A stretch of DNA of 64,000 nt, taken from NCBI GenBank assembly GCA_947472795.1, contig CANJBL010000013.1, positions 3,553 to 67,552 of the forward strand, read 5' to 3'. The position numbers and the translations under genes are program-made. The stretch is from Fidelibacterota bacterium (GTDB lineage Bacteria > Pseudomonadota > Alphaproteobacteria > Rhodospirillales > Rhodospirillaceae). A model generated the notes under the pieces. The model was not told the DNA's origin and ran no database searches. It worked only from the letters and a program-made list of their open reading frames with translations. Below, in pieces: positions 4,863-28,631 of this stretch; positions within the stretch are counted from its first letter, which is position 1; every line of letters begins with the position of its first letter.

Positions 4863-4873
4863 GGTCGTTCTCC

Positions 4874-8246: not shown

Positions 8247-9929
8247 ATGCAGTCTTTGAAGGGCCCTGTTGCCCGGGTACTTCCCGCGGCGTGGATCACG
8301 ATCCTGATCCTGCCGAGCCTTGCCTGGATTTTGATCGACGAGCGGGTGTGGCCTTGGGACCCGGGATATTACGGCGACTGGACGTTGCGCGCGGCTGACC
8401 TGCTCGCGCGGGGGATGCTGCATGAGTGGTACGACTTCAATATGCATGCCCTGCAGTTGATGCCGCCCTTGATCGTCTGGCTGGGGCAGTTTTTCGTGCC
8501 GCTGCGCCACGTGACGGGTGACGTGGAATCAGCCCTGATGCTCCTCAATATCTGCACGGGTGCTGCCACCTTGGCATTGATCTATCGCCTGGCCCGCAAC
8601 CTTGGCGCCGGCCTGCTGGCCAGCCTGGCGGCAACGACGGTGTGCGGCGGCGCTGATCTCTTCATCGGATTGATGCACCACTATTTCACCGAGCCGCTTC
8701 AGTCCTTCGCCGCAGCCCTATCGATGCTCGTCGCATTGCACGTGGAGCGGCGTTCCGGCCTGCGCAATCTGGCCCTCGTGCTGTTGCTGATCGATGTGGC
8801 TTTCCTGGCGAAGGCATCGAGCCTGACGTTTATTGCGCCCGCGCTGGCGTATATGGCGGTCGCGCTGTTTGCCACCCGCGGCGATGCGCGCGCGCGCGCA
8901 ACGCGTATCGACAAGGTATTGCTGGCGGTGGGCGTGGTTGGACTTATCCTCACCTTCATTTGGTACAACACCAATTGGACCGTCATGGCCAAACACTTTG
9001 TTCAGGCCACAACCGGTGAAGAAGTCCAGAATTACTATCCGACGACGCTGTCTTTTGCGGTCAAACTGAAATATTGGATCGGCACACTGGCGGACGCGGT
9101 GTTCCTGAGCCGCTGGGGCCTTGCCGCACTCTGTCTCATGATCGTGGCGGCCATTGCAGTTGCGATGGCGAAACTGCGCGCACGCTTTTCAGCGGGCTTC
9201 GCGACCCTGCTGCGCGAGTCCGTCACAACGGGTGCACTTTACGGCCTTTATCTCGCCGGCATGGTGATCGCGATCATTTTTTCCTTCGCTCTGCAGATCA
9301 ATGAGGACCCACGCTATCTGGCGGCGGTCGTTCCTTTAATAGCGGGCCTTGTCGCTTGGACGCTGACGGTTTTGCGGCGGCCCGTCTTGAGTGCTCTCGT
9401 GATCCTCACGGGCATAGCCAACGCGGTCATGGCGAACGCCATCGCGCTTCACTTCTTTCCGTCGCTTTACTACATCTGGCTCTGGCCGGTGGACAAAAGC
9501 CTGACGGAGAGAACCGCTTTGACCCGCATCATCGACGCGACTTGCCAGGACGGGACGCAGATCAATGCTATCGGCGTGTCCTATCCCTGGACCAATTCCA
9601 ACACCGCCAATTTCTTCGCGCAAAAGCAGCGTCTAGATACGCATTTCAGCTGTACGTATTTCTCGATGCCGCAGGATGACGTCAAAACGGCGTTCACCTG
9701 GCTCGACACAACCCGTATCGCCTATGCTGTCACCGTAGCGCCGGAACAGCAGGACCCGCCCAACTTCGTCAATGTGAGCGCGAAGCCGATCGCCGAGGCA
9801 CTGGCCGCCGATGCCCGTTTTGAACTGATGCCTTCATCCAGCCACCGCTTCAAAATCTACCGGCGCCTTCCTGAACCCAGCAGCGCGCCCGAGAGTGACG
9901 AAAGCCACACAAACGAAGGCCGTCCGTGA
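8247..9929 (+). CDS. polytopic membrane protein, putative GT-C type (ArnT/PMT_2-like) glycosyltransferase
   Basis: About 560 aa with many hydrophobic helices. A DE-containing first loop (LIDERVWPWDPGYY) is followed by a soluble C-terminal domain. The neighbourhood contains GT2 and flippase-like genes. Start is ATG 8247 or TTG 8232. Confidence 0.55.
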   Translation: MQSLKGPVARVLPAAWITILILPSLAWILIDERVWPWDPGYYGDWTLRAADLLARGMLHEWYDFNMHALQLMPPLIVWLGQFFVPLRHVTGDVESALMLLNICTGAATLALIYRLARNLGAGLLASLAATTVCGGADLFIGLMHHYFTEPLQSFAAALSMLVALHVERRSGLRNLALVLLLIDVAFLAKASSLTFIAPALAYMAVALFATRGDARARATRIDKVLLAVGVVGLILTFIWYNTNWTVMAKHFVQATTGEEVQNYYPTTLSFAVKLKYWIGTLADAVFLSRWGLAALCLMIVAAIAVAMAKLRARFSAGFATLLRESVTTGALYGLYLAGMVIAIIFSFALQINEDPRYLAAVVPLIAGLVAWTLTVLRRPVLSALVILTGIANAVMANAIALHFFPSLYYIWLWPVDKSLTERTALTRIIDATCQDGTQINAIGVSYPWTNSNTANFFAQKQRLDTHFSCTYFSMPQDDVKTAFTWLDTTRIAYAVTVAPEQQDPPNFVNVSAKPIAEALAADARFELMPSSSHRFKIYRRLPEPSSAPESDESHTNEGRP

Positions 9930-10900
9930 AGGTAGCCCTCATTATCGCGAAGGTCGCCATTACCCTCGCCCTGGCCTGGATCATCCTGGAGCGTGTTGAT
10001 CTCGCGCCGGTGGGCAGCTTCATTACGTCCAGCCGCGCGACGGCAGCCATGATCCTTTGCGTCGGCGTACTCATTGGCCAGGCGTTCATGGCGGCACTTC
10101 GCCTGCGCTGGATCATGCGGCTCATGGGCACGCACCTTCCGTTGAGCACCGGCTTCTCGACATGGATGAGCGGATTACTGGTGAGCCAGGCGACCTTCAT
10201 CGCCGGCGACGCCACGCGCATCTGGCAACTTGTCCAGCGCGGTCACGGCCGCAGGCTGTCGGCCGGCGCGATTTTTCTGGAACGCGCCCTGGGATTTGCG
10301 GTGCTGATGGCTATGGTGCTTGTGTCTCTGCCCTTTCTTCTGGCGCGGGATATGGATGCGGCGGTGCGCGCGGGTCTGTGGACGCTCGGCGGACTGTGTG
10401 GCGTAGGCATTCTGGGCTTCGTTGCGTCCGCATTCGTGAACCGGATCATTGCCCGTGTAGCACCGCGCCTGCACGCTCAGCGCATCGCCTCCGCCATTAC
10501 CGACATCACCTCGGCCGCGCGGCACCTCGCGAGCTCATGGAAGCTAACCATCGCGGTCATCCTTATCAACGTCATCATGCATCTCTGTAATGCGTTGGTT
10601 TTCTACATTCTGGGTTTGGCTGCGGATGTGAACCTGAGCATGGCCAATACAGTGATCGTGGCGCTGCCTGTCATGCTGATGGCCTTGATGCCGATTGCCT
10701 TGGCGGGGTGGGGCGTGCGCGAGGGCGCTGCGGTTGTGGGATATGGATTGTTCGGTATCGGCGCACAAACGGCGACCACGCTTTCCATCACCTTCGGCCT
10801 TGTGCTGCTGCTGACCAGCCTGCCAGGCGGCATTTTCCTCTGGGCCGGCAAGAAGGTTGCCGCCGAAGATCGCGAGCGTCAGCTAGTGGAGCAGATTTGA
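9926..10900 (+). CDS. UPF0104 / lysylphosphatidylglycerol-synthase-TM-region family (flippase-like) membrane protein
   Basis: 324-aa multi-TM ORF. The N-terminus MKVALIIAKVAITLALAWIILERVDL is typical of PF03706 proteins. Its GTG start overlaps the upstream stop (GTGA), suggesting translational coupling. Confidence 0.7.
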   Translation: MKVALIIAKVAITLALAWIILERVDLAPVGSFITSSRATAAMILCVGVLIGQAFMAALRLRWIMRLMGTHLPLSTGFSTWMSGLLVSQATFIAGDATRIWQLVQRGHGRRLSAGAIFLERALGFAVLMAMVLVSLPFLLARDMDAAVRAGLWTLGGLCGVGILGFVASAFVNRIIARVAPRLHAQRIASAITDITSAARHLASSWKLTIAVILINVIMHLCNALVFYILGLAADVNLSMANTVIVALPVMLMALMPIALAGWGVREGAAVVGYGLFGIGAQTATTLSITFGLVLLLTSLPGGIFLWAGKKVAAEDRERQLVEQI

Positions 10901-11050
10901 CATTCGCTACCTAGTTAGCGGAAAAAACTGAGCGGCGAATGTCAAATCGTAAGCTCCACTAGATTCATATATTTCTAGTGGTCCTTTGATTCTAACATTC
11001 GCAAACGAATCACCAGAACTGGGATGCGAATGTTAGAATCGGACCACTAG
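10896..11050. repeat. AT-rich block of three nested or adjacent inverted repeats ending 2 nt before the 11052 start codon
   Basis: IR1 is tttgacattcgc (10896-10907) / gcgaatgtcaaa (10935-10946). IR2 is ccactaga (10956-10963) / tctagtgg (10974-10981). IR3 is ctagtggtcc-ttt-gattctaacattcgca (10975-11003) / tgcgaatgttagaatc-ggaccactag (11025-11050). The motif ACATTCGC/GCGAATGT occurs 4 times. Confidence 0.8.
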
Positions 11051-11051
11051 C

Positions 11052-12056
11052 ATGAGCGACACGGCCCTTATCGTCACATCCATCAACGCGCCCAATGCGG
11101 TCATGGCCGCCTTGCGCGATGGCGCACGCGCGCAAGGCATACGTTTCATTGTGGTGGGCGACACCAAGAGCCCCGCCGACTTCGCGCTGGAGGACTGCGA
11201 TTTCTTCAGCATAGCCCAGCAGCATGCCACAGGGCTGAAGTTCGCTGGCCTTTGCCCCACACGCCATTATGCCCGCAAAAATATCGGCTATCTCGTGGCC
11301 ATTCGCGAAGGTGCGCGGCTGATTCTGGAGACCGACGACGATAACTTCCCGCGCCCGCCCTTCTTCGGCGCGCGCACATGCAGCCACAAAGTGCCCGTGG
11401 TGGCGCGGCCTGGATGGGCGAACCTCTATCGTTATTTCACCGGTGCCGTGATCTGGCCGCGCGGCCTGCCCTTGGATGAAGTGCACAGTCCGCTGGAGGA
11501 CTTTGCGCAGCTTGCGACAGCGACAGTGGAGTGCCCCATCCAGCAGGGTCTGGCCGACGCCAACCCAGATGTGGATGCGATTTACCGCCTGCTCTTCCCG
11601 CTGCCGCAGGACTTCCGCAACGACCGGCGCCTGGCGCTGGCGCCCGGTGCCTGGTGCCCCTTCAACAGCCAGAACACCGCCTGGTGGCCGGAAGCCTTTC
11701 CGCTTCTGTACCTGCCGGCGTATTGCTCATTCCGCATGACCGATATCTGGCGCAGCTTTGTCGCCGAGCGCATCGCAGGAGCTAACGGCTGGCACATCCT
11801 GTTCCACGAGGCCACGGTCTGGCAGGAGCGCAATGAACACAGCCTCATGCGCGACTTTGCTGATGAAATTTCCGGTTATCTCAACAACGCCCGCATCCGG
11901 GAGACCTTGGAAGCCGTGGATGTGGCGCCGGGCGTGCAGCATATTCCGGAAAACCTGCGCCGATGCTATAGGGCTCTGGTGGAGCTGGGCGTCGTGGGAG
12001 CGGAAGAGCTGCCGTTACTCGAAGCGTGGCTGCACGATCTGACGCATATCCTTTAA
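11052..12056 (+). CDS. putative glycosyltransferase, STELLO/DUF288-like
   Basis: 334-aa ORF. N-terminal LIVTSINAPNAV...IRFIVVGDTKSP and a later ETDDDNFP motif resemble DUF288-type glycosyltransferases. Assigned from memory of the family, not from a search. Confidence 0.5.
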   Translation: MSDTALIVTSINAPNAVMAALRDGARAQGIRFIVVGDTKSPADFALEDCDFFSIAQQHATGLKFAGLCPTRHYARKNIGYLVAIREGARLILETDDDNFPRPPFFGARTCSHKVPVVARPGWANLYRYFTGAVIWPRGLPLDEVHSPLEDFAQLATATVECPIQQGLADANPDVDAIYRLLFPLPQDFRNDRRLALAPGAWCPFNSQNTAWWPEAFPLLYLPAYCSFRMTDIWRSFVAERIAGANGWHILFHEATVWQERNEHSLMRDFADEISGYLNNARIRETLEAVDVAPGVQHIPENLRRCYRALVELGVVGAEELPLLEAWLHDLTHIL

Positions 12057-12104
12057 CACGGCGCTTCTTTCGACTCTGGCGCTGCCCGTTGGACATCCCC
12101 CTGC

Positions 12105-12797
12105 TTGCGCCTGTCTCTTTGCCTTTTGACGTGGAACGAAATCGAAGGTTGCCGCAAGGACGTACCGCGTCTCTCATTCGAAGGGTTTGACGAGGTCTTC
12201 GCCCTCGACGGCGGCTCGAAAGACGGCACCGTGGAGTTCCTCACCGCGCAAGGCATCGCCGTGCACCAACAGGAACTGCGTGGATACAATGGCGCCTATA
12301 TTTGCGCGTTTCGCCGCTGCACCACCGATGCCCTGGTGTTGTTTCATCCGAAGGGCTCGATCGATCCTTCCGTTGTTCAAAAATTCCGCCCCTATTTCGA
12401 ACGGGGCTACGACCTTGTTGTCGGCAGCCGCATGATCGCCGGTTCGGTCAATGAAGAGGACGGCAAACTCTTCCGTCCGCGTAAATGGTTCGTGCGCGCG
12501 TTGGCGCTGGTCGCGACGGTTCTTTGGAACCGGCGGGGCGCCATGACGTGGGACGTGCTTCATGGCCTGCGCGGTATGCGGAAAGATGCTTTTGACCGGA
12601 TCGATGCCTTGCCACGAGGATTGTCCATCGACCTGGAAATGGTGGTGCGCGCCTACCGCCTGGGCCTGAAGCAGGTTGAATTCCCGGTCATTGAAAAGCC
12701 CCGCCCCAGCGGCGAGACACACTTCAAGGCATGGCCCACGGGCAAGGCGCTTTTGCGCTATCTTTGGCAGGAATTGCGCCGGCCATCCGGCCTATAG
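12105..12797 (+). CDS. family 2 glycosyltransferase (polyprenyl-phosphate sugar synthase-like)
   Basis: 230-aa ORF with a TTG start. LSLCLLTWNE...ALDGGSKDGT...YNGAY and a C-terminal amphipathic tail are GT2/GtrB/Ppm1-like features. Confidence 0.7.
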   Translation: MRLSLCLLTWNEIEGCRKDVPRLSFEGFDEVFALDGGSKDGTVEFLTAQGIAVHQQELRGYNGAYICAFRRCTTDALVLFHPKGSIDPSVVQKFRPYFERGYDLVVGSRMIAGSVNEEDGKLFRPRKWFVRALALVATVLWNRRGAMTWDVLHGLRGMRKDAFDRIDALPRGLSIDLEMVVRAYRLGLKQVEFPVIEKPRPSGETHFKAWPTGKALLRYLWQELRRPSGL

Positions 12798-12873
12798 TGG
12801 GTCCGGAGTTGTCAAAGCCGAGGGGGTTTTCTATACATCCCCGAGACATCCGCCACGAGCTAGGATTCCATCC

Positions 12874-14172
12874 ATGATCCCGCGCTATGCCCGGCCCGCC
12901 ATGACCAAGATCTGGGAGCCGGACAACAAATTCCGTATCTGGTTCGAGATCGAAGCCCATGCCTGCGATGCCCAGGTGAAGCTGGGCGTCATTCCCGCAG
13001 AAGCCGCGAAAGCCGTCTGGCAGCGCGGCAAGTGGAACATCGAGCGCATCGACGAGATCGAGAGAGAGACCAAGCACGACGTCATCGCCTTCCTGACCAA
13101 CCTGGCGGAATACGTTGGGCCCGATGCGCGCTTTGTGCACCAGGGAATGACCTCGTCGGATGTGCTGGACACCTGTCTTTCCATGCAACTCGTGCAGGCC
13201 GCGGACATTCTGCTGACCGACATCGACGAACTGCTCGCCGCCCTGAAGCGCCGCGCGCTGGAACATAAAATGACAGTGGCCATGGGCCGTAGCCATGGCA
13301 TCCACGCCGAGCCCGTGACGCTGGGCCTGAAATTCGCGGGCTTCTATGCGGAGTTCCAGCGCAACCGTCAGCGGTTGGTGGCCGCGCGCGAAGACATCGC
13401 AAGCTGCGCCATCTCGGGTGCGGTTGGCACCTTCGCCAATATCGATCCCTTCGTGGAAACCTATGTCGCCGAGAAGATGGGCCTGCATGCGGAGCCCGTC
13501 TCGACGCAGGTGATCCCGCGCGACCGGCACGCCATGTACTTCTCGGTGCTGGGCGTCATCGCCAGTTCCATCGAGCGTTTGGCTACCGAAATCCGCCATC
13601 TGCAACGTACGGAAGTACGCGAGGTGGAAGAATATTTCTCGCCCGGGCAGAAGGGCTCGTCGGCCATGCCGCACAAGCGCAACCCGGTGCTGACGGAGAA
13701 TCTCACAGGATTGGCGCGCGTGGTGCGCAGCGCTGTCATCCCGGCCATGGAGAACGTGGCGCTGTGGCATGAGCGCGATATCTCGCATTCATCGGTCGAG
13801 CGCTACATCGGCCCTGATGCCACCATCACGCTGGACTTCGCGCTGGCGCGCGCCACCAACGTCATCGATAAGCTGGTGGTGTATCCGGATGCCATCGCGC
13901 GCAACCTCAACATGATGGGCGGCCTGGTCTTCTCGCAGCGTGTGATGCTGGCGTTGACGCAAGCCGGCGTGAGCCGCGAAGACTCCTATGTCTATGTTCA
14001 GCGCAATGCCATGAAGGTGTGGAACGACGGCGGCCAGCTGCTCGACCGCCTGAAGGGCGATACGGACGTGACCGCCAAGCTGCCAGTGCCGGAATTGGAG
14101 AAGCTGTTCGATATGGGCTACCACACCAAGCATATCGACACGATCTTCACGCGCGTATTCGGCAAAAGCTGA
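12874..14172 (+). CDS. purB: adenylosuccinate lyase
   Basis: MIPRYARPAMTKIWEPDNKF..., a GSSAMPHKRNP signature, and typical length (432 aa) from the in-frame ATG at 12874. The track ORF from 12676 is an upstream extension. Confidence 0.95.
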   Translation: MIPRYARPAMTKIWEPDNKFRIWFEIEAHACDAQVKLGVIPAEAAKAVWQRGKWNIERIDEIERETKHDVIAFLTNLAEYVGPDARFVHQGMTSSDVLDTCLSMQLVQAADILLTDIDELLAALKRRALEHKMTVAMGRSHGIHAEPVTLGLKFAGFYAEFQRNRQRLVAAREDIASCAISGAVGTFANIDPFVETYVAEKMGLHAEPVSTQVIPRDRHAMYFSVLGVIASSIERLATEIRHLQRTEVREVEEYFSPGQKGSSAMPHKRNPVLTENLTGLARVVRSAVIPAMENVALWHERDISHSSVERYIGPDATITLDFALARATNVIDKLVVYPDAIARNLNMMGGLVFSQRVMLALTQAGVSREDSYVYVQRNAMKVWNDGGQLLDRLKGDTDVTAKLPVPELEKLFDMGYHTKHIDTIFTRVFGKS

Positions 14173-14180
14173 CACGCATC

Positions 14181-14954
14181 ATGCCCTCCCCGGACGCCAG
14201 CATCGCTATTCTTGACCGCCTGGGCCTGGAGGAAGACCGCCTCGATACTTTGAATCCGCAAGCGCTGCGCGTGCTCGACGGACTGTGGATGGACCGCACA
14301 GACCCCACCAACCCGCAGCCGCGCAAAGGCGGGCACCTGACGCGCATAAAATCCGCCGTCCTACATAATTTAGTGACCGCGTTTCAACCCAGCCGAACCA
14401 TCGAGATCGGCCTGTTGTTGGGCGCTTCGGCCATGGTCATCATGGCGGCGGCTCAGCGTGAAGGCTATCTCGGTCACTTCGCCATGGACCCCGCGCAGAA
14501 CACACACGCGAAGGGTGCCGGCCTCGAGAACATTGTGGAGGCGGGCCTAAAGCCGCTGTTCACTTTTCTCGAGATCGAGAGTTGCTACGGGCTGCCCTAC
14601 CTGATCATCAACGCTTCGCCGACATTCGACTTCGCGTTCATCGATGCTTCGCACCACTTCGATCACACGCTGCTGGAGTTCTTCTACCTCGACCGCATGG
14701 TGCCGGTCGGAGGCGTGATTGCCTTCGACGATATCAAGACGCCGGCCGTGGAAGCGGTCATCAATTACGTCGCGGCCAACCGGCACTATGTCTGCCGCCG
14801 GGTCGGCGGGCTGGTCTGTGCCATAAAAATGGCCGACGACCTGCGCCACTGGTTCGAGTTCAATCGCTTCGAAATTCCAGACGGCGCGGCCTTCATGCAG
14901 AAGAAATATACCGACAGCGGCAAAACACCGCGGCTGAAGTCATACAAGAGTTGA
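14181..14954 (+). CDS. class I SAM-dependent methyltransferase (Methyltransf_24 / O-MT family 3-like)
   Basis: In-frame ATG at 14181, just after the purB stop. Motif I-like TIEIGLLLGASAM and FAFIDASHHFDHTLLEF are present. Confidence 0.65.
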   Translation: MPSPDASIAILDRLGLEEDRLDTLNPQALRVLDGLWMDRTDPTNPQPRKGGHLTRIKSAVLHNLVTAFQPSRTIEIGLLLGASAMVIMAAAQREGYLGHFAMDPAQNTHAKGAGLENIVEAGLKPLFTFLEIESCYGLPYLIINASPTFDFAFIDASHHFDHTLLEFFYLDRMVPVGGVIAFDDIKTPAVEAVINYVAANRHYVCRRVGGLVCAIKMADDLRHWFEFNRFEIPDGAAFMQKKYTDSGKTPRLKSYKS

Positions 14955-14958
14955 CCGG

Positions 14959-15285
14959 TTATTTGGCTTCGGCGATCTGTGTCACGGCAGCAGCAAAGCT
15001 TTCCTGAAGAGCGCGCGAAGTCTCGGTGCGATTGACGGAAAGACCGGCGGCTTTGAAATCGCGCTCGACCTTTTCCAGCATGTCGTCATCGCCGGGCTTC
15101 TCGAAATTCGCATCGACGACTGTCTTGGCATACTCCTCGGATACTGCGCCCGCATAACCAAGCTTGCCGGCAGCCCACTGGCCAAAGAGCTTGTCGCGGC
15201 GGGCCTGGGCGCGAAAGCGCTGCTCCTCATCGAGCTGATACTTGCGTTCAAAACCCTTCTCGCGATCATCGAATGCGCCGGCCAT
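14959..15285 (-). CDS. DUF1476 protein (alphaproteobacterial F1-ATPase inhibitor zeta subunit family)
   Basis: 108 aa from the ATG at 15285 (GGAGGA RBS): MAGAFDDREKGFERKYQLDEEQRFRAQARRDKLFGQWAA is characteristic of DUF1476. Confidence 0.85.
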   Translation of the reverse strand: MAGAFDDREKGFERKYQLDEEQRFRAQARRDKLFGQWAAGKLGYAGAVSEEYAKTVVDANFEKPGDDDMLEKVERDFKAAGLSVNRTETSRALQESFAAAVTQIAEAK

Positions 15286-21396: not shown

Positions 21397-21726
21397 ATGA
21401 CGACTCCGGCTATTGACCAAATCAAGAAAGACCTGAGCGAGAACGACGTGGTGCTGTTCATGAAGGGCACTCCGGCGGCCCCCATGTGCGGCTTCTCGGC
21501 GGCGGTGGTACAGGTGCTGTCGCACATCGGCGTGAAGTTCAAAGGCGTGAATGTGCTGGCCGACAACGACGTGCGCCAGGGCATCAAGGACTTCTCCAAC
21601 TGGCCGACGATCCCCCAGCTGTATGTGAAGGGCGAATTCGTCGGCGGCTGCGACATCGTGCGCGAGATGGCCGAAGCCGGCGAGCTTCAGACGCTCATGA
21701 AGGAAAAGCAGGTCGCGACGGCGTAA
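21397..21726 (+). CDS. grxD: Grx4-family monothiol glutaredoxin
   Basis: VVLFMKGTPAAPMCGFS...WPTIPQLYVKGEFVGGCDI, with the CGFS active site. Confidence 0.95.
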   Translation: MTTPAIDQIKKDLSENDVVLFMKGTPAAPMCGFSAAVVQVLSHIGVKFKGVNVLADNDVRQGIKDFSNWPTIPQLYVKGEFVGGCDIVREMAEAGELQTLMKEKQVATA

Positions 21727-21752
21727 GCCTTAGAGACAAGCTCGATAAAACA

Positions 21753-21786
21753 AAACGGCGCTCATGAGAGAGCGCCGTTTTTTGTT
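21753..21786. terminator. bidirectional rho-independent terminator shared by grxD (+) and cassette 1 (-)
   Basis: aaacggcgctc-atgaga-gagcgccgttt, with T-runs on both strands. Confidence 0.85.
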
Positions 21787-21815
21787 TGTGGTCTTTGAGA
21801 CCCAAATCATTCTTC

Positions 21816-22232
21816 TTATTCGTTGTACAGATGAAGCTTTTTCGCCTCCTCATCCGTAAAGTATTTTGCGTTCTTCATATCCGCAATGCACGCGCCCATC
21901 ATGTGGCCAGGCTCGTCTGGGCCATGCTGGCAGACTTCGAAGTCTGCAAAAACCGTATAATCCTGCTTCTCTATTTTCTGGTAAAGGTCCGGGAATTGAT
22001 CCTCCACATCTCGCCAATAGAGGCATAAGTGTCGCTTGGTGCCCACGGGCCATAATATAATGTGGCTATCTGCATACACGGTTACTCGCGCGTGAACTTC
22101 CCGGCACTCCTGGAGCGCATAGTCGCTAGGTCGGCAACCGATCTGGTCAGCGGCAAATGACGTCGTCGCGCAGAGTAGGCTGAGTGCGCAAAGACTGGGT
22201 AGAAAGCGGTTCATTGCTAGCATCTCGGTCAA
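21816..22232 (-). CDS. small secreted protein, candidate orphan immunity protein
   Basis: 138-aa ORF, AT-richer than the flanks. It has the signal peptide MNRFLPSLCALSLLCATTSFA. It is last in the cassette 1 gene string. Start is TTG 22232, ATG 22223 or ATG 22214. Confidence 0.6.
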   Translation of the reverse strand: MTEMLAMNRFLPSLCALSLLCATTSFAADQIGCRPSDYALQECREVHARVTVYADSHIILWPVGTKRHLCLYWRDVEDQFPDLYQKIEKQDYTVFADFEVCQHGPDEPGHMMGACIADMKNAKYFTDEEAKKLHLYNE

Positions 22233-22241
22233 ATTGAAGGA

Positions 22242-22757
22242 TTAAGTTTCTGCGGTCCTTATCGCTTTGGCTCTGCAAATCCTTGCGGGGTCGCGCAGAC
22301 CTGCTCTTCTCTCGCTCTCTTTGAATTCGTCTTTCACTATCTCATGCACGTGCTCGCGCATCGTAAAGAGAGCGCACGGCTCCCCATTTGTGCTTTCTAC
22401 CTGCTCGATACGGAGCAATCGCCACCCGAAGCCGTTGTGTGTCTTGAAACCGAACCTGAGGAGAAAATCGGGATTAAATACAGCAATATAGATCGCCTCT
22501 CCTTTACATTTGTCAGCCACGTTGGATTCGATGCAATCGATCAAACCGTTTTGATAGTGAAATGCGCGAATGGGAAAGTCCGTGGGATTATCAATAGCTG
22601 CTGCATATCCAATACCCTTACCGGACTCACCAACGGGGCTGAGATTTTCCATCAGGTCCAACACCGCGTCAGGCAGGTTCTCCATTTCTGCCGCAAGGAC
22701 GTACTGCGGCAGAAATGCAAAAAGTGCGGCAAAAGCGATGCGTGTGAACGGGATCAT
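22242..22757 (-). CDS. small secreted protein, candidate orphan immunity protein
   Basis: 171-aa ORF with signal peptide MIPFTRIAFAALFAFLPQYVLAA. Its ATG overlaps the upstream stop (ATGA at 22754-22757). Confidence 0.65.
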   Translation of the reverse strand: MIPFTRIAFAALFAFLPQYVLAAEMENLPDAVLDLMENLSPVGESGKGIGYAAAIDNPTDFPIRAFHYQNGLIDCIESNVADKCKGEAIYIAVFNPDFLLRFGFKTHNGFGWRLLRIEQVESTNGEPCALFTMREHVHEIVKDEFKESERRAGLRDPARICRAKAIRTAET

Positions 22758-23365
22758 TTAGCACCGTTGTTTTTCGGCTTCCATAGCATCGGCGGCAAAT
22801 CGGAGTCCGCTCCACTGAGATCGATGTGCGGAGCATCATCGCCGTCTTCAATGTCGTCGATGTCAGCTTGGCATTCGTCTAGAAGCCAAATGCCTCGCTT
22901 TCTCTCAAAAACAAAGTCGCAATCAAAATAATCTTTTGCCCAAGCTTCTGCGACTTTCACGTTGCCCTTCTCAGGCGCCAACGAAAATACCGCCTCGATT
23001 GAGCCATCGTGTACGTAGGTATTTACCTGCACGATCTCCGCCGCCGTCACCAAGTCGTAGTATGAATGTCCGTTGAGCGGGCCAAAGAATATATCGACAG
23101 CTTCTTCATCCATCAGCCCATCAACACAATGGTCTGGATCCGTGGGAAGACATTTCGAACGTGGCGATATGGCGAGAGCGAGAGCTTTGTCTTTGGTCTC
23201 GATGGCCTTTAGGAAGCACCCGATCGCCCAACCGACCTGCGACGTGACCAAATTATTGGGCACATAGCCTGGACACGACGCAAGCGGCGTACCATCGAGA
23301 TCGTCTTTCGCATACGATACATTCGAACAGAAAAGTACCGCAATGATGAGGATGCAAAATTTCAT
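22754..23365 (-). CDS. secreted protein, candidate cognate immunity protein for the M23 toxin
   Basis: 203-aa ORF with signal peptide MKFCILIIAVLFCSNVSYA. Its ATG overlaps the toxin stop (ATGA at 23362-23365). Low GC. Confidence 0.65.
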   Translation of the reverse strand: MKFCILIIAVLFCSNVSYAKDDLDGTPLASCPGYVPNNLVTSQVGWAIGCFLKAIETKDKALALAISPRSKCLPTDPDHCVDGLMDEEAVDIFFGPLNGHSYYDLVTAAEIVQVNTYVHDGSIEAVFSLAPEKGNVKVAEAWAKDYFDCDFVFERKRGIWLLDECQADIDDIEDGDDAPHIDLSGADSDLPPMLWKPKNNGAK

Positions 23366-24267
23366 GGCCTTCCTAGCCAGCCGAGATCTTCAAATATAAG
23401 GTTGGGATCTTCAACGCGGCTACCGCGTGTTGCCGGCGCATCGGGCGTTCCCGGGCGATATGTAAAGTGAAGATGCGGGCCAGTCCCTTCACCCGAGCCG
23501 TTTGTGAATCCAATCTGGCTTCCAGCCGCGACATCCTGACCTACTTTCAGTCCACCGACCGCCCTAGTGTGGGCGTAGCCATACAGATTGCCAGACGCGT
23601 CTCTAATCGTAATGTAGTTGCCGCTTTTAGAATCTTTTCCAATCTCCACCACCTTACCACCAACAACGCTTCGAATGGGTTGATTGGGACGAGAACAAAG
23701 GTCCACGCCGTTGTGAGGAACCGGCCTATTTTCAGTACTGCCGAAATCGTCGCCGCCAATTATCGCACCATTTATCGTCGGATAAAACTTCGCCTGTGTG
23801 CGGCTTTTAGGCAATGGCTTACCTGTGACAGTAATCCCTTCTGTCGGTGGGCCATCAATGACAACGGGCGACCCGCCACCACCCCCAGTGTCCACCCGCC
23901 CTGCGCCGACCTCATCATAGCCGGGTGAGGAAAATGAGCCGGAGTCCACGTAGGGGGAACCAATGGTCGTAACGGATTCCCCGTTGTCGGTGAAACCGTC
24001 GTAAGAGCCCTCGAACTCCGGCAGTCCAGTGTTCGGGTTAATGCGGTTCTTGCGGCTGCCGATGCGCAAAGAGTCGAAAGGTATGTTGTTGGCTGCGGCG
24101 GCCTGGCGGAGAAGGGAAAGAAGTTCCGGGGTTTGCAGAAACTCTGGGAGGATGATCTCGCCGGGCGTCAGGTGCGCGAGATGGCCGAAGCCGGCGAGCT
24201 TCAGACGCTCATGAAGGAAAAGCAGGTCGCGACGGCGTAAAGCCCGAGACACCTTCGGATAAAACAA
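23362..24267 (-). CDS. M23 (LytM-type) peptidoglycan endopeptidase toxin whose N-terminal module is truncated and fused to antisense grxD sequence (orphan, possibly silent)
   Basis: The C-terminus has HNGVD (HxxxD) and GPHLHF (HxH), which are M23 zinc motifs. Residues 31-150 (AHLTPGEIILPEFLQTPELL...GGGGGSPVVIDGPPTEGITV) match the paralogs at 24968..25864 and 26662..27756. Residues 1-32 are read from the reverse strand of a duplicated grxD 3' fragment, and a terminator hairpin lies immediately upstream. Confidence 0.7.
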   Translation of the reverse strand: MFYPKVSRALRRRDLLFLHERLKLAGFGHLAHLTPGEIILPEFLQTPELLSLLRQAAAANNIPFDSLRIGSRKNRINPNTGLPEFEGSYDGFTDNGESVTTIGSPYVDSGSFSSPGYDEVGAGRVDTGGGGGSPVVIDGPPTEGITVTGKPLPKSRTQAKFYPTINGAIIGGDDFGSTENRPVPHNGVDLCSRPNQPIRSVVGGKVVEIGKDSKSGNYITIRDASGNLYGYAHTRAVGGLKVGQDVAAGSQIGFTNGSGEGTGPHLHFTYRPGTPDAPATRGSRVEDPNLIFEDLGWLGRP

Positions 24268-24299
24268 AACGGCGCTCCAAGAGAGCGCCGTTTTTATTT
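24172..24299 (+). repeat. duplicated copy of the grxD 3' end plus its terminator (direct repeat of 21658..21786)
   Basis: 69 nt (gtgcgcgagatggccgaagccggcgagcttcagacgctcatgaaggaaaagcaggtcgcgacggcgtaa) are identical to 21658-21726. A diverged ~20-nt spacer follows. The terminator hairpin aaaacggcgctc-caaga-gagcgccgttttt then follows. Confidence 0.95.
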
Positions 24300-24314
24300 G
24301 GCTTCGTACGCAGA

Positions 24315-24986
24315 CTAATTAAGTGGTTTAAGCGCCGACGTTACCTTCTCAAGCAATTCATCGGCGGCATTCTTGTTCTTGATATGCACGTACGATGCGA
24401 CCGTATATCCACGCCCACCATTTTTGTAAGCAGGATCAGGACGGTATGCGAGAAAAGCCTTCGAGTATCTGTCATAGGCCACATCCTCACGCGTGCAGGC
24501 GACGGTATTTAAACCCATGATGCGTGTTCCTGCGGACGCAATTGACACCGGGGCAGTTGATGGACCTAGACCGCCATCTTTAGACGCCGGACGCGGGCTT
24601 TTGCAGTACGGCTTGCCTACGTAGTCAATGTAGTCATCCAGGGTTTCAACGACGAGCGGCGTATCAAGATATGGGGCGATGACGACAAAGTCGGGTTTGT
24701 CGTCATCGCTCGTACCCATTTTAAGATTCTCACACCCGATTTCTCTGTCCAGCAACACATAGAACCAAAGATCGCTCGAATAACTGTTTGCAATGCTGCA
24801 GACACGAAACCCATCCGGAAGTTTCTCTATTCGAATATTATTTCTGTCGAAGTCATATGGCAGCTCAACGGGGGCCCAATGCGGACGTGGCTCTTTGCCA
24901 CCCAAATCAGCTGCAATAGTTTGTGATATCCAAATCACCACGAACAAACCAAGAAGAACAGCAAGCCTCAATGTCCCTGCTCCCAT
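24315..24986 (-). CDS. secreted or membrane-anchored protein, candidate immunity protein for the glucosaminidase-like toxin
   Basis: 223-aa ORF. N-terminal hydrophobic segment LRLAVLLGLFVVIWISQTIAA. It overlaps the toxin 3' end by 19 nt. Low GC. Confidence 0.65.
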   Translation of the reverse strand: MGAGTLRLAVLLGLFVVIWISQTIAADLGGKEPRPHWAPVELPYDFDRNNIRIEKLPDGFRVCSIANSYSSDLWFYVLLDREIGCENLKMGTSDDDKPDFVVIAPYLDTPLVVETLDDYIDYVGKPYCKSPRPASKDGGLGPSTAPVSIASAGTRIMGLNTVACTREDVAYDRYSKAFLAYRPDPAYKNGGRGYTVASYVHIKNKNAADELLEKVTSALKPLN

Positions 24987-25864
24987 ATGGGCAAACGGTT
25001 ATTAACTGTATCGATCGCGCCTCTGATTAGGTCCGTGTAGCCGCTATGATTATTATACATATTATTGGGGTCCTCCCCCAACTCTCTCATAAAATCATCT
25101 AGGTTGCTCTTGCCCTGTAAGCGGTTGAAAAATTGAGTACCTCTAAACGCGTCAATTGAAGCCTGATTCGTCGGATAGCTATAGGGCTTCTCATTCGCAT
25201 CACTCAGTCCAAATAAATTATTTTTCTTAGACTGACCCCAAGCGCTTTCATGAGCGGCGAGGCCAAGAATGAAATTTGGAGGTACCTTCATCTCATTTGC
25301 TAGCGCGGTGAGAGGACCAGTATATGACCTGAAGAACGCATTCACGTGTGGCGGATTTAAGCTTTTTGGGGTTACCGTAATCCCCTCTGTCGGCGGGCCA
25401 GGAACGACATATGGTTGCCCACCGCCGCCGCCCGTGTCCACTTGCCCGCCGCTGACCAAATCAAAGCCGGGTGAGGAAAATGAACCGGAGTCCACGTAGG
25501 GCGAACCAATGGTCGCAACGGATTCCCCGTTGTCGGTGAAACCGTCGTAAGAGCCCTCGAACTCCGGCAGTCCAGCGTTCGGGTTAATGCGGTTCTTGCG
25601 GCTGCCGATGCGCAAAGAGTCGAAAGGTATGTTGTTGGCCGCAGCTGCCTGGCGCAGAAGGGAGAGAAGTTCTGGGGTTTGCAGAAACTCCGGGAGGATG
25701 ATCTCGCCGGGCGTCAGATGCGCCATCTCGGTGTCGCCACCACGGCCCTGGGCAGCGAGGGCCTTGGCCTGACGGGCGCGTTCCTTCTGGCGCTTTTTCT
25801 CGAGGGCTACGGCCTGCTCGCGCGTCAACGCGCCGGGGCTGTTGTTGCGGAAGAGTTCGGTCAT
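24968..25864 (-). CDS. polymorphic toxin: conserved N-terminal module fused to a glucosaminidase/muramidase-like (FlgJ C-terminal type) peptidoglycan glycosidase domain
   Basis: 298 aa with an AAGGAG RBS. Residues 1-165 are shared with 26662..27756. The C-terminal ...ILGLAAHESAWGQSKKNNLFG... resembles the catalytic-Glu block of Glucosaminidase (PF01832) domains. No signal peptide. Confidence 0.8.
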   Translation of the reverse strand: MTELFRNNSPGALTREQAVALEKKRQKERARQAKALAAQGRGGDTEMAHLTPGEIILPEFLQTPELLSLLRQAAAANNIPFDSLRIGSRKNRINPNAGLPEFEGSYDGFTDNGESVATIGSPYVDSGSFSSPGFDLVSGGQVDTGGGGGQPYVVPGPPTEGITVTPKSLNPPHVNAFFRSYTGPLTALANEMKVPPNFILGLAAHESAWGQSKKNNLFGLSDANEKPYSYPTNQASIDAFRGTQFFNRLQGKSNLDDFMRELGEDPNNMYNNHSGYTDLIRGAIDTVNNRLPIWEQGH

Positions 25865-25960
25865 GGGAAGCGTGCTCCTTTTCTAAAAACAAAAGCAGCT
25901 TCCGTCATAGAATTATCGCGCCTCGCCGCCAATCCGTGCGGCCGCTGTTCCGCCCGCTTT
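25865..25960 (-). promoter_or_regulatory. conserved 5' leader/promoter block of the toxin genes, with a hairpin covering the Shine-Dalgarno
   Basis: About 95 nt nearly identical to 27757..27850. On the mRNA strand it reads GGAAGCUGCUUUU-GUUUUUAG-AAAAGGAGCACGCUUCC and ends 1 nt before the AUG (25866..25903). Confidence 0.55.
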
Positions 25961-25971
25961 TCAAGTTATCC

Positions 25972-26014
25972 AAAAACAAAACGGCGCTCTGTTGAGAGCC
26001 CCGTTCTTTGTTTC
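25972..26014. terminator. third, slightly degenerate copy of the AAAACAAAACGGCGCTC...CCGTT terminator; ends cassette 3
   Basis: caaaaacaaaacggcgctct-gttgag-agccccgttctttgttt has one stem mismatch and a U-run on the minus strand downstream of the stop at 26053. Confidence 0.7.
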
Positions 26015-26052
26015 AAGAAAAAGGTCAATAATTGCGACAGCATAGTGTTTGG

Positions 26053-26619
26053 CTATGAACAGCCCTCGATAAGGCGAATAGCATCCGGCGTTCCAGAGCG
26101 GAAAGTTGTTACTTTATTGTCGTTTGTCTCAAACAGGAGACCACGTTGCATGTCGCTCCGAAGCACTTCCAAATAGTGGCCCGCTTCTTCGAGATAGGGG
26201 TGAGGAGATATCTCCACTTTGGCGCCATAGCCTTCCTTAATCTGCTCTTCCGTCGATCCAACCCGAATACCCTTCTCTGTAGAAATGTATGGATCGACAG
26301 TCTCGGTCTTTCCGAGTTCACGCTCCTCGATATCGATCCGCACAATCTCATTGTCTTGGACCATGTAATAGACCTGAGGATCAACACCATCTGCACGATG
26401 GGCGTACCAACAACTATCTTCTTCAAAGTCGAGCTTGGGGCTAAACTTCGCGCCAAGTGCTTCCTCTGCTTGACTGGGCGTCATCCCGATGCGCACCGGC
26501 CCTAACCCGTCGAAGGTTAGGATTTGGTCCGGCGTGTTCTCGGCCTCCAAAGCGGCATGCGATAGCGCGCAACACGCGAGAGAAGCAGCCGCGAGAACCT
26601 TGATCGATGTGCTTAACAT
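26053..26619 (-). CDS. secreted protein, candidate immunity protein for the LAS/MepA-like toxin
   Basis: 188-aa ORF with signal peptide MLSTSIKVLAAASLACCALSHA. It lies 42 nt downstream of the toxin stop. Low GC. Confidence 0.65.
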   Translation of the reverse strand: MLSTSIKVLAAASLACCALSHAALEAENTPDQILTFDGLGPVRIGMTPSQAEEALGAKFSPKLDFEEDSCWYAHRADGVDPQVYYMVQDNEIVRIDIEERELGKTETVDPYISTEKGIRVGSTEEQIKEGYGAKVEISPHPYLEEAGHYLEVLRSDMQRGLLFETNDNKVTTFRSGTPDAIRLIEGCS

Positions 26620-26661
26620 GGCACTGCAATCCCTTTCGCTACCTAGCGATGCCTCTATATA

Positions 26662-27756
26662 TCACGGGTGCCAGTAGGGATCGACTTCGACATGGATATG
26701 GTCATCGTGGCCGCCCAACGGCGTAACTCCTGCAATGTTAGGATCATTGAAGAATATATTTCTTACTCCTCCCGTTGCGCGCAGAATATCAATCAGCGCT
26801 TGCGTTGCGTTTCGGTCATAGTTGGGGTCTTTCCATGTGGTGCCCGGGACTTGTTGACCGTCACTCCTGACCGGCCTGATGTCGATGCTCGTACCGTTCG
26901 CTTGATGGCCGGTATGACCGTACGGGGATCCGTCTTCTAAACTCATATTTCCCGCGCCGAATGGCTTTGCGCCCGTTGCACTCCATTGTTTACCCGCTTC
27001 ATTGATAAGATTGACTGCGGCCGGCACGCCATATTGAGCCTGTCTAGGTCCACCTCTACGGCCAGGGCCTGGTGTTCCGTAATTATAATATCCGCTAGCC
27101 GGCGTGCCCTGAGGCAGCTGCATGAAACCCGGAAGCGGCGTCGCTTTCACCGTAATCCCTTCTGTCGGTGGGCCATCGATGACAAGGGGCGGCCCACCAC
27201 CACCGCCGTTGTCAGCCTGTGGCGCGCCAATCAGATTAAAGCCGTTCCCAGAAAATGAGCCGCCGTTCTGGAAGGGCGAACCCGTTACCGTCACGCCGTC
27301 CATGCCCGCCCCGTTGCTGGCGAACGGTGGAGCAATGTTGAGTTGTCCAGGGTCCAGGAAGCTGCTGATATCCGGGAGATTACTGAGGCCCGGAAGGTCG
27401 TCGAACGTGGGGATGTAAAAAGACTCGCGATCGTAGTCGGTGTAGTAGTCGAACTCCGGCAGGCCTGTATTGGGGTTAATGCGGTTCTTGCGGCTGCCGA
27501 TGCGCAAAGAGTCGAAAGGTATGTTGTTGGCCGCGGCTGCCTGGTGCAGAAGGGAGAGAAGTTCCGGGGTTTGCAGAAACTCGGGGAGGATGATCTCGCC
27601 AGGCGTCAGGTGCGCGAGTTCAGTATCGCCGCCCCTGCCTTGAGCAGCGAGCGCCTTGGCTTGGCGGGCGCGCTCCTTCGCGCGTTTCTTCTCAAGCTCC
27701 ACGGCTTGCTCGCGCGTCAGGGCACCGGGGCTGTTGTTGCGGAAGAGTTCGGTCAT
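26662..27756 (-). CDS. polymorphic toxin: conserved N-terminal module fused to a LAS-superfamily (MepA/peptidase M74- or M15-like) murein endopeptidase domain
   Basis: 364 aa. Residues 1-102 are ~95% identical to 24968..25864. It carries the same GGGGGPPLVIDGPPTEGITV junction. The C-terminal HTGHQANGTSIDI (HxxxxxxD) and GGHDDHIHVEV (HxH) match LAS zinc-peptidase motifs as in MepA. Confidence 0.8.
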   Translation of the reverse strand: MTELFRNNSPGALTREQAVELEKKRAKERARQAKALAAQGRGGDTELAHLTPGEIILPEFLQTPELLSLLHQAAAANNIPFDSLRIGSRKNRINPNTGLPEFDYYTDYDRESFYIPTFDDLPGLSNLPDISSFLDPGQLNIAPPFASNGAGMDGVTVTGSPFQNGGSFSGNGFNLIGAPQADNGGGGGPPLVIDGPPTEGITVKATPLPGFMQLPQGTPASGYYNYGTPGPGRRGGPRQAQYGVPAAVNLINEAGKQWSATGAKPFGAGNMSLEDGSPYGHTGHQANGTSIDIRPVRSDGQQVPGTTWKDPNYDRNATQALIDILRATGGVRNIFFNDPNIAGVTPLGGHDDHIHVEVDPYWHP

Positions 27757-27850
27757 GGGAAGCGTGCTCCTTTTCTAAAAACAAAAGCAGCTTCCGTCAT
27801 AGAATTATCGCGCCCTGCCGCCAATCCGTGCGGCCGCTGTTCCTCCCGCT
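27757..27850 (-). promoter_or_regulatory. conserved toxin 5' leader/promoter block (copy 2)
   Basis: Near-identical to 25865..25960, including the SD-covering hairpin (27758..27795). Homology ends at about 27850. Confidence 0.55.
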
Positions 27851-27920
27851 ATGCCCGAAGAGCACAGGGTTTAGTCTTGGGACGCACAGGTGCATCACGC
27901 ACTCGTCGCGTTTCTTGGCT

Positions 27921-27953
27921 CTGGGTCCTGGGACCAAGTCCCAGGACGACGCC
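27921..27953. repeat. solo REP-like palindromic unit
   Basis: ctgggtcctgggaccaagtcccaggacgacgcc resembles the right arms of the 17773 and 33164 elements (ccctcgggacaagcccgagggtgacga). Confidence 0.55.
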
Positions 27954-27954
27954 G

Positions 27955-27991
27955 TGTTTGAAAAGCAAACGGGGCCCAAAAGGGCCCCGTT
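27955..27991 (-). terminator. rpsD rho-independent terminator
   Basis: aacggggccc-aaaa-gggccccgtt hairpin (27968..27991), followed on the minus strand by CUUUUC. It lies 25 nt past the rpsD stop. Confidence 0.75.
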
Positions 27992-28016
27992 CGTGTCTCG
28001 GTATGTGCCGCGCTGA

Positions 28017-28631
28017 TTAGCGCGAGTAGAATTCGATGACGAGGTTCGGTTCCATCTGGACGGGGTACGGCACGTCCTTCAGGCCGGGCACGCGCTTCAG
28101 AGCGCCGGCGAACTTGGAGTGATCGACGTCGATGTAATCGGGCACATCGCGCTCGGCGGATTCAGAAGCTTCCTTCAGGGTGGCGAGGTCCTTGGACTTG
28201 CGGCGCACTTCCAGGGCATCGCCCACCTTGACCATGTAGGACGGGATGGTGACGCGCTTGCCGTTGACGCTGACGTGGCCGTGGCTGACGAACTGGCGCG
28301 CGGCGAACACGGTCGGCACGAACTTCATGCGATAGACGATGGCGTCCAGACGGCTTTCGAGAATGCCGATGAGGTTTTCGCCGCTGTCGCCCTTGCGGCG
28401 CATGGCTTCGGCGTAATACTTGCGGAACTGACGCTCGGAGATGTTGCCGTAGTAGCCCTTCAACTTCTGCTTGGCCATGAGCTGCACGCCGTAATCGGAC
28501 GGCTTCTTGCGCTTCTGACCGTGCTGGCCGGGACCGTATTCACGCTTGTTGATCGGGCTTTTGGCGCGGCCCCAAAGGTTGACGTTGAGGCGGCGGTCGA
28601 TCTTGTACTTTGACTCAGTACGCTTGGTCAT
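28017..28631 (-). CDS. rpsD: 30S ribosomal protein S4
   Basis: [39 protein letters not shown]...; 204 aa. Confidence 0.97.

Follow-up and report, generated by a model that had tools for sequence, protein, structure and literature searches.

Between grxD and rpsD in a 64,000-nucleotide stretch of contig CANJBL010000013.1 (Fidelibacterota bacterium, assembly GCA_947472795.1), hereafter the window, lies a 6.2-kb island with three toxin genes (T1 to T3) and five genes for small signal-peptide proteins (I1 to I5). Judged from its genes and those of its relatives, the island is very probably a chromosomal polymorphic toxin-immunity locus, with two toxin-immunity pairs (T1/I1 and T2/I2) that appear to be live and one cassette that appears to be an orphan, and its toxins would form a new trafficking class. 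The constant N-terminal module of these toxins almost certainly has its homologue at the N-terminus of internal or ejection-cassette proteins of uncultured podoviruses. The best explanation that we can offer as a whole, a toxin-immunity locus whose products would travel in a phage or phage-like particle, is tentative, and toxicity, neutralization and the route of delivery are the parts of it that we infer; the anatomy of the genes, the identities of the domains, the polymorphism of C-termini across the family, the co-variation of toxin and partner, and the homology and contexts in phages are shown by the sequences.

Toxins and partner genes of the grxD-rpsD island

The island lies wholly on the minus strand, bounded by grxD (21397..21726, plus strand) and rpsD (28017..28631, minus strand), and along the minus strand its genes read T1, I1, T2, I2, T3, I3, I4, I5 (Table 1). 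The finding is real and not an artefact, and the island is unchanged in all of the metagenome contigs bearing T1 (9/9). The original prediction, made from the letters alone, had placed here three toxins with one N-terminal region and three different peptidoglycan hydrolase C-termini (M23, glucosaminidase and MepA-like), each followed by one open reading frame (ORF) encoding a signal-peptide protein of no recognizable family. All six ORFs are present on the minus strand where it put them, and the three C-terminal assignments held, the MepA-like one by fold, with a weak sequence match to M74. The signal-peptide ORFs are indeed without a family, but there are five of them and not three.

None of the three toxins has a signal peptide. 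The C-terminus of T3 scored 71.5 bits against Peptidase_M23 (cut-off 28.7) and has the HNGVD and HLH motifs, while that of T2 scored 34.5 bits against Glucosaminidase (PF01832), over the cut-off of 30.2, with the catalytic glutamate present in AHESAWG. T2 is also 46% identical, over its full length, to the homologue P0025. T1 is composed, in order, of a leader, a basic helix, the module core, a disordered Gly/Pro-rich linker and a MepA-like LAS metallopeptidase. The C-terminus scored 19.9 bits against Peptidase_M74 of Pfam, under the cut-off of 25, and T1 scored 17.9 bits against the MepA-type model of NCBIfam, where the cut-off is 272. In an AlphaFold2 model based on an alignment of 148 sequences, residues ~240-364 mostly have a predicted local distance difference test (pLDDT) value of 70-90, and the model resembles Escherichia coli MepA (1tzp/1u10) with a Foldseek probability of 1.00 (E 4e-4, 155 columns). 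On reading the sequence, we found the zinc-ligand motifs HTGH..D and HDDHIH, and the same MepA-like domain occurs in the homologues P0033, P0039 and P0060. Residues 107-238 of T1, the linker, have pLDDT <50 and form a long stretch rich in Gly, Ser and Pro.

The five partner ORFs are mutually unrelated, each starts with what reads as a typical Sec signal peptide, and none matched a family in Pfam, PHROG or NCBIfam. Homologues of I1 are found beside the M74-like toxin P0033 in the same direction (loci L039 and L040; 55% identity, 5e-30) and beside the M74-like toxin P0060 in convergent orientation (L051-53; 38% identity, 2e-33). A homologue of I2 follows the glucosaminidase toxin P0025 in a sister genome, L055 (51% identity, 6e-74), and one of I3 follows the M23 toxin P0038 (38% identity, 1e-44). 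In these homologues, I1, I2 and I3 each keep company with the matching kind of toxin, on contigs that are otherwise unrelated and with the genes both co-directional and convergent. At L001 and L003-L005 the toxin is followed by signal-peptide or membrane ORFs, with a run of three secreted ORFs at L003.

Within the island, I4 and I5 have no toxin partner. We considered I4 as a recognizable orphan immunity gene and dropped it, as a word-indexed search found no homologue but I4 itself. Orphan genes of the I1 family were seen at two other loci. At L060 (5535-7239), such a gene is accompanied, on the other strand, by an M74-like remnant of 192 aa, and at L059 (9203-10314), it lies between plsY and dprA and the M74 remnant has been lost; at both, the I1-family gene and a second small ORF are orphans in the plsY-dprA gap.

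With a profile of the module, a full HMMER scan found 1,896 cluster representatives at E<=1e-3, 766 of them at E<=1e-10; the word-indexed protein search, at 6 matches, was nearly blind to the family. Most relatives are 200-400 aa long and have the module at or near the N-terminus, and apparently they come mostly from uncultured bacteria and phages. Among the best 148 of the 1,896, less than one third matched any Pfam family, and the matches fell into at least 12 toxin families, in addition to unassigned tails: DUF6973 (8), Hydrolase_2/SleB (7), M23 (5), Phage_lysozyme (5), Glucosaminidase (4), Ntox44 (3), M15_4 (3), M74 (3), PLA2 (2) and VanY (2), as well as 3D and DPBB_1. By eye, we also saw glycine-zipper and transmembrane (TM) tails. 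No nuclease family occurs among the matched Pfam C-termini of these 148 relatives. Leaving DUF6973 and Ntox44 aside, the recognizable C-termini are predicted to act on the envelope (eight peptidoglycan hydrolase families, PLA2 and the glycine-zipper/TM tails). Our literature searches turned up no account of toxins with DUF6973 or of periplasmic toxins borne by phages.

Because the C-termini are polymorphic across the family and the partners co-vary with them, we recognize the computational hallmarks of a polymorphic toxin system in the island: a constant N-terminal region joined to unrelated C-termini, both in T1-T3 and among the 1,896 relatives; an adjoining partner gene that co-varies with the toxin (I1 with M74-like, I2 with glucosaminidase, I3 with M23); and a truncated toxin cassette (T3) with extra immunity-like genes (I4 and I5). 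The toxin-immunity reading put forward in the original prediction is borne out in this respect, as is its expectation that homologues elsewhere would differ at the C-terminus. Absent from it were the truncation of T3, the genes I4 and I5, the pre-toxin motif and the homology to podovirus internal proteins.

We also considered that these enzymes are housekeeping autolysins with dedicated periplasmic regulators and have no role in conflict. M23, MepA-like and glucosaminidase enzymes do have wall-remodeling roles, and there are weak NCBIfam matches to MepM, FlgJ and MepA, but these scores are all far under the cut-offs. The enzymes lack signal peptides while their partners have them, the sister genome L055 has no such island at the syntenic site, the variable parts have a foreign GC content, and the C-terminal polymorphism is extreme and includes toxins that do not act on peptidoglycan, all of which makes the autolysin explanation very improbable.

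Table 1. Features of the island in window coordinates, in minus-strand reading order
Feature	Coordinates	Strand	Basis
T1, full-length toxin, 364 aa	26662..27756	-	ORF; weak Pfam M74, AlphaFold2 and Foldseek MepA
T1 constant N-terminal module, aa 1-103	27448..27756	-	88% DNA identity to 25557-25856
T1 pre-toxin motif TEGITVKA, TonB-box-like beta-strand motif	27139..27162	-	family motif count
T1 toxin domain, predicted MepA/LAS-type peptidoglycan endopeptidase, aa 238-364	26665..27045	-	Pfam, AlphaFold2, Foldseek
I1, 188 aa, candidate cognate immunity for T1	26053..26619	-	homologues beside M74-like toxins
Third, degenerate grxD terminator hairpin, in the I1-T2 gap	25973..26013	.	85% identical to 21747-21787
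T2, full-length toxin, 298 aa	24968..25864	-	ORF, Pfam PF01832
T2 module, aa 1-103	25556-25864	-	repeat with T1
T2 TEGITVT motif	25370-25390	-	sequence
T2 glucosaminidase/muramidase domain, aa 187-287	25004-25306	-	Pfam PF01832
I2, 218-223 aa, candidate immunity for T2; overlaps the T2 stop codon	24315..24986	-	L055 homologue
Duplicate of the grxD 3'-end with copy of the grxD terminator	24172..24300	+	exact repeat and terminator search
T3, 5'-truncated orphan toxin	23362..24171 (ORF to 24267, 301 aa)	-	ORF, M23, junction analysis
T3 M23 domain	23452-23718	-	Pfam
I3, 203 aa, candidate immunity for M23 toxin; ATGA overlap with T3	22754..23365	-	P0038 neighbor
I4, 171 aa, orphan immunity-like	22242..22757	-	role inferred from position only
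I5, 132-138 aa, orphan immunity-like	21816..22232	-	ORF call; no family match
grxD terminator, bidirectional; island boundary and template of two hairpin copies	21747..21787	.	repeat and terminator searches

The constant module and its phage relatives

T1 and T2 have residues 1-103 in common, and their DNA is 88% identical across 300 nt. The window holds three copies of the module only (in T1, T2 and T3), as repeats far beyond chance. T3 lacks the first ~47 residues and its module starts at AHLTPGE, so the common N-terminus that the original prediction gave to all three toxins is complete in T1 and T2 only. The trafficking region consists of a 20-aa leader, a basic helix and a core of ~60 aa with the pattern GRGxDTxxAHxTPGE...NxINPxTGxPEF; in T1, these are the leader LFRN.SPGALT, a helix at 15-39 and the core GRGGDTE.AH.TPGE...NRINPNTGLPEF. 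An AlphaFold2 model of the module alone has the helix at 15-39 and a compact core at 50-100 with pLDDT 80-96. A double-glycine leader (GRGG ahead of DTE) was rejected because the residue after GRG varies, and what is conserved is G-R-G-x-D-T.

The module matched no model in Pfam, NCBIfam or PHROG, and nothing in the PDB, whether by profile search or by Foldseek with the predicted structure. A Foldseek search of BFVD with the same model returned only uncharacterized homologues named 'uncultured Caudovirales' (39% identity, root-mean-square deviation 2.2 A). No Pfam marker domain of the type V, type VI or type VII secretion systems (T5SS, T6SS, T7SS), of MuF or of colicins falls on the module, in agreement with the original prediction, which had not recognized it as one of the T5SS/contact-dependent inhibition (CDI), T6SS, T7SS, MuF or colicin classes. 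We found no earlier description of the module in the literature.

T1-T3 have a second element in common, ...GGGGG.P.V..GPPTEGITV[TK], which stands directly ahead of the point of divergence and marks the boundary between constant and variable parts. In T1, a weaker second copy of the motif, DGVTVTG, lies upstream of TEGITVKA. When family members were searched with a regular expression of the [IL]EEITVTAP type, this pre-toxin motif was found in 36 of 131, compared with ~4 expected from shuffles, a nine-fold excess, and it is sometimes duplicated. We presume a resemblance between [IL]EEITVTAP and the 'EEIVVTA' TonB boxes of TonB-dependent receptors, and treat this as a lead and not as a result. 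The LFRN.SPGALT leader is strictly N-terminal and is present in 41 of the 159 family proteins compared. Two of them, P0038 (residues 3 and 65) and P0045 (residues 4 and 65), have it in tandem duplicate, and no viral contig searched has it, which suggests that it is a signal separate from the phage-type core.

The module is encoded on 32 IMG/VR contigs. On most of them, it heads a Gly-rich protein of 480-750 aa with hydrophobic/TM segments. In the contigs scanned, the gene upstream of these long forms resembles the 'nozzle gp16' of phage VP1 (8zkk/8zkm; phrog_3287), and the gene downstream belongs to phrog_4287, 'DNA ejection protein'. A slot between nozzle and ejection protein is the place of the gp13-gp16 class of phage T7. 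Pfam was uninformative for the neighbors of the long forms, and PDB searches with the 189-, 331-, 610- and 1457-aa neighbors gave no match. The module protein was also considered as a scaffolding protein, and this was dropped because the upstream gene matches a nozzle and not a portal.

Other phage contexts are closer in form to the window. On the phage contig L007, a short, toxin-like form lies near the nozzle gene and is followed by a convergent ORF for a Sel1-like secreted protein, and P0128 is a fusion in which a P22-type portal is joined to the module and then to a C-terminal domain. The most telling case, L054, is an SU10-like prophage with SU10-type portal, major capsid protein (MCP) and adaptor genes, on the 228-kb contig JANRJL010000032.1 (GCA_033763995.1). 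Between its MCP and adaptor genes (9878-14985) are three tandem genes with near-identical modules and three different C-termini, and after each of the three comes a convergent gene for a Sel1-repeat lipoprotein or secreted protein. L054 repeats the three-cassette architecture of the window within a phage late operon. The original prediction had named as a point against itself that the module might be a known phage domain with invariant partners; the phage partners vary and the domain is an uncharacterized one.

On this evidence, the trafficking module may be derived from podovirus ejection-cassette proteins or may be common to them and the toxins. Placement in a nozzle-ejection operon is true of the homologues (L007-L038 and L054) and not of the window genes, with which only the module is common.

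Two further features of the phage contigs are recorded here. On L037 (14949-20222), a DarB-like antirestriction/methyltransferase-helicase protein of >1,758 aa is encoded two genes downstream of the module protein; DarB-like proteins are another class that heads pack and inject. The end of the module, NP.TG..EF (window ~27448-27480), recurs 2-4 times along long phage forms (P0098, P0104, P0114, P0126, P0150 and P0090), where shuffles give ~0, and it behaves like a repeated, putative short linear binding motif.

Possible routes of delivery

Podovirus heads contain ejection proteins, which pass into the envelope on release, and some of these degrade peptidoglycan (SU10 gp20-24, PMC9509320; see also PMC8954989). 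Given the homology between the trafficking core and podovirus internal proteins, we believe that the route of the toxins is most likely phage-derived. In our proposal, T1 and T2 would be two-part proteins, in which a constant trafficking region, a disordered linker and the pre-toxin motif carry an interchangeable peptidoglycan hydrolase whose place of action would be the recipient's periplasm. A short-tailed phage, or a particle derived from one, would be encoded elsewhere; the module would bring the toxin from the cytoplasm into its head or to its ejection machinery, and the particle, once adsorbed to a cell, would discharge the toxin into the periplasm of that cell in the manner of podovirus ejection proteins. 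The gene after each toxin would encode a Sec-exported periplasmic protein that neutralizes that toxin in sibling cells.

There are precedents for parts of this. Gp16 of phage T7 and gp20 of SU10 (PMC9509320, PMC8954989) are likewise cytoplasmic, signal-less carriers of peptidoglycan hydrolases to the periplasm of the recipient, and the phage homologues of the module lie in the same cassette, from nozzle to 'DNA ejection protein'. However, no solved ejection protein matches the module in sequence or in fold, and the known ones are single-copy, essential, non-polymorphic and without an immunity partner, in all of which the family differs. The restriction of the recognizable toxins to the envelope is in keeping with a route ending in the periplasm, and is what one would expect of cargo that a podovirus discharges there by way of its tail. 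For the island in the window, we regard delivery by a phage or phage-like particle as possible but doubtful. A more specific form of the proposal, in which the chromosomal toxins are 'hitch-hikers' that have copied a loading signal from podoviruses and are packed into a resident or infecting phage or a domesticated particle, so that non-kin are killed and kin are immune, is somewhat unlikely.

MuF toxins are a comparable case, with packaging in the head and delivery by injection predicted (Zhang et al. 2012, PMC3482391; PMC12226406). They too combine a phage-virion-associated N-terminal domain, variable C-terminal toxins and adjoining immunity genes. In contrast to them, the window proteins have no MuF/SPP1-gp7 domain (Pfam and PHROG on residues 1-110), the recognizable toxins of the family would strike the envelope or periplasm where MuF toxins strike nucleic acids or nucleotides, and the island lies outside any prophage, with portal or prophage context only in the distant L054 and P0128. 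In the sections consulted, Zhang et al. 2012 give no trafficking class of this kind.

Several results weigh against delivery in a phage particle. We saw no phage genes near eight chromosomal loci (the window, L001-L006 and L055), which are surrounded by housekeeping genes, so this route needs a helper that is encoded elsewhere, and no helper was seen. On the contigs carrying the island, neither a secretion apparatus nor phage genes were found within ~0-61 kb of the window; the original prediction had likewise noted no apparatus in the window. A scan of 185,579 genomes gave six module loci, all of them short forms, and there was no long phage form in the genomes of those six. Searches of cultured phages and plasmids by tblastn with the module, two phage-type modules and two long phage proteins gave nothing meaningful, and the subtype with the LFRN leader is absent from 2.9 million viral contigs. 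For the role of the module in phages, a packaging signal and an envelope-interaction domain are candidates only, and the structure search leads to homologues that are themselves uncharacterized.

Some of the same observations suit a different account, that the toxins are free bacteriocins of the colicin or pesticin kind, released for example by lysis. Here the module would bind an outer-membrane receptor, the linker would thread the protein through, and [IL]EEITVTAP would act as a TonB box by which the hydrolase is drawn into the periplasm at the expense of the proton-motive force, with periplasmic immunity protecting kin. Cassettes free of any apparatus and set among housekeeping genes are typical of chromosomal bacteriocins, and the envelope-acting recognizable toxins with predicted periplasmic partners, the long disordered Gly/Ser/Pro linker of T1, the nine-fold excess of a pre-toxin motif that is at times duplicated, and the absence of the LFRN subtype from viral contigs all agree with it. 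Pesticin/Pim and colicin M/Cmi (PMC5821083, PMC8469651) are similarly modular, periplasm-acting toxins of ~300 aa with periplasmic immunity, have no dedicated secretion apparatus adjoining the gene, and have a TonB box, which our motif may resemble. However, the motif is optional, being found in ~27% of members and missing from the DUF6973, GH24 and SLT-like classes, and it is internal, between linker and toxin, whereas in known TonB-dependent bacteriocins it is N-terminal. It also occurs in the phage-context L007/P0108 and in the portal fusion P0128. The family has no homology to translocation or receptor domains of colicins, pyocins or pesticin (Pfam, NCBIfam, PDB), and the island has no lysis gene. 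The bacteriocin account is a serious rival, though we consider it unlikely.

T1-T3 could instead be orphan effectors, exported by a cellular secretion system whose genes lie elsewhere (T6SS, type IV or type I secretion system, or an undescribed one), with leader and module as a recognition or adaptor domain. In T6SS, effector-immunity pairs are often orphans located at a distance from the apparatus. The pairing of a peptidoglycan hydrolase with periplasmic immunity is the logic of Tae/Tge and Tai/Tgi, in which enzyme and periplasmic inhibitor are also encoded by overlapping or adjoining gene pairs, and the LFRN leader, being conserved, at the extreme N-terminus, specific to the cellular subtype and occasionally duplicated, suggests a signal for a cellular machine. 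Against this, the markers PAAR, MIX, FIX, Rhs, DUF4150, VgrG, LXG and XVIPCD were found neither in the best 148 relatives nor in the window proteins, and there was no apparatus gene, and no vgrG, hcp or adaptor gene, in the window and its flanks or among the best 25 of 97 Pfam families flanking six other loci. The matched C-termini include no nuclease, which is unusual for families with a T6SS marker domain, and the homology to podovirus internal proteins is left without an explanation. A cellular secretion system is improbable on this evidence.

Finally, the hydrolases may be no weapons between bacteria but virion-borne enzymes that pierce the wall at phage entry, the secreted partners inhibitors that serve in superinfection exclusion, and the array in the window a decayed or captured remnant of L054-like prophage cassettes. 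This reading suits the arrays in prophages. The partner genes in L054 and L007 are convergent to the late operon and so could be expressed in lysogens, SU10 gp20 and T7 gp16 are peptidoglycan hydrolases that podoviruses eject (PMC9509320), and the island has a GC content below that of the genome and one truncated member. We find this explanation quite improbable, given that T1/I1 and T2/I2 are intact, the island is conserved in each of the nine metagenome contigs carrying it, no phage gene is left within tens of kilobases, the LFRN subtype never occurs in the viral contigs searched, and C-termini of a lethal type (PLA2, glycine-zipper/TM tails, Ntox44) make little sense for entry.

Island history, setting and meaning

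The junction at the 5' end of T3 records part of the history of the island. An exact repeat of 69 nt places the last codons of grxD (21658-21726) again at 24172-24240 on the plus strand, with a copy of the grxD terminator beside it at 24260-24300, and for its first 31 'codons' the annotated T3 ORF is grxD read in antisense, open by accident. The junction itself is a microhomology of 9 nt, CTCGCGCAC, at which the L-A-H codons of the toxin meet the reverse complement of grxD. Just upstream of T3, a strong bidirectional terminator (24266-24294) separates it from the T2-I2 unit. We call T3 a 5'-truncated orphan because its module starts at AHLTPGE behind the grxD copy and terminator, and 24172..24300 appears to be the scar of the event that truncated it. 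The simplest history that we can propose from the sequence is that new toxin/immunity DNA came in more than once at the grxD terminator and each time left an older cassette behind. As part of the same overall explanation, and equally tentatively, T3 with I3, I4 and I5 would be a displaced orphan cassette, left when new DNA recombined at the grxD terminator.

This arrangement is similar to that of CDI (cdiA-CT/cdiI) and Rhs loci, where a full-length toxin is likewise followed by 5'-truncated orphan modules and extra immunity genes, and the pre-toxin motif PPTEGITV stands at the recombination boundary as VENN and PxxxxDPxGL do. Unlike those systems, the island encodes proteins of ~300 aa, lacks FHA, Rhs and HINT repeats and has neither a T5SS nor a T6SS, and its orphan arose via microhomology with a neighboring housekeeping gene.

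Base composition differs between the parts of the island. The variable toxin/immunity DNA has a GC content of ~0.50, compared with ~0.60 for the flanks and the constant module, a split that fits a resident constant region receiving foreign variable cassettes and agrees with a history of repeated entry. By bins, GC was ~0.60 at 25500-25999 and 27000-27999 and ~0.50 at 22000-25499 and 26000-26499.

In the sister genome L055, which comes from the same samples, the grxD-rpsD gap is filled by an unrelated Lactamase_B gene, and a single toxin cassette (P0025 and the I2 homologue) is found at another site, adjoining glnS. With the island absent from the syntenic site and a toxin cassette present elsewhere, the cassettes are probably mobile. 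The gene in the gap (L055 1314-2186, syntenic to window ~21790-28010) has a Lactamase_B fold and a weak match to the anti-Pycsar protein Apyc1, and the grxD-rpsD gap looks like a hotspot for conflict-related cargo. At the start of the window, ~1-8000 is occupied by clustered PSD/PSCyt (DUF1553/1549-like) and HXXSHH proteins of planctomycete type, unusual company for the alphaproteobacterial-style gene order purC-purS-purQ-purL-bolA-grxD.

The classes of polymorphic toxins are drawn by the trafficking domain at the N-terminus. The module here is unrecorded in Pfam, NCBIfam, PHROGs and the PDB, yet it defines ~1,900 sequence clusters. Through its homology to podovirus ejection-cassette proteins, and through the three-cassette array of the SU10-like prophage, it connects toxins used between bacteria with the proteins that short-tailed phages eject before their DNA, the part of these phages that is understood least. 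If a phage-borne route is true, it would account for the envelope-only action of the recognizable toxins, would extend the MuF precedent to periplasmic delivery in Gram-negative bacteria, and would offer a natural capsid-loading tag for phage engineering. If the toxins are hitch-hikers, they would be polymorphic toxins of a new trafficking class, confined to the periplasm by the physics of podovirus ejection, and would be the first toxins on a host chromosome to use podovirus heads as syringes. If they are imported by a TonB-type mechanism, the family may instead be a large untapped reservoir of lysin-type bacteriocins. By either route, I1 to I5 would be five new families of candidate peptidoglycan hydrolase inhibitors.

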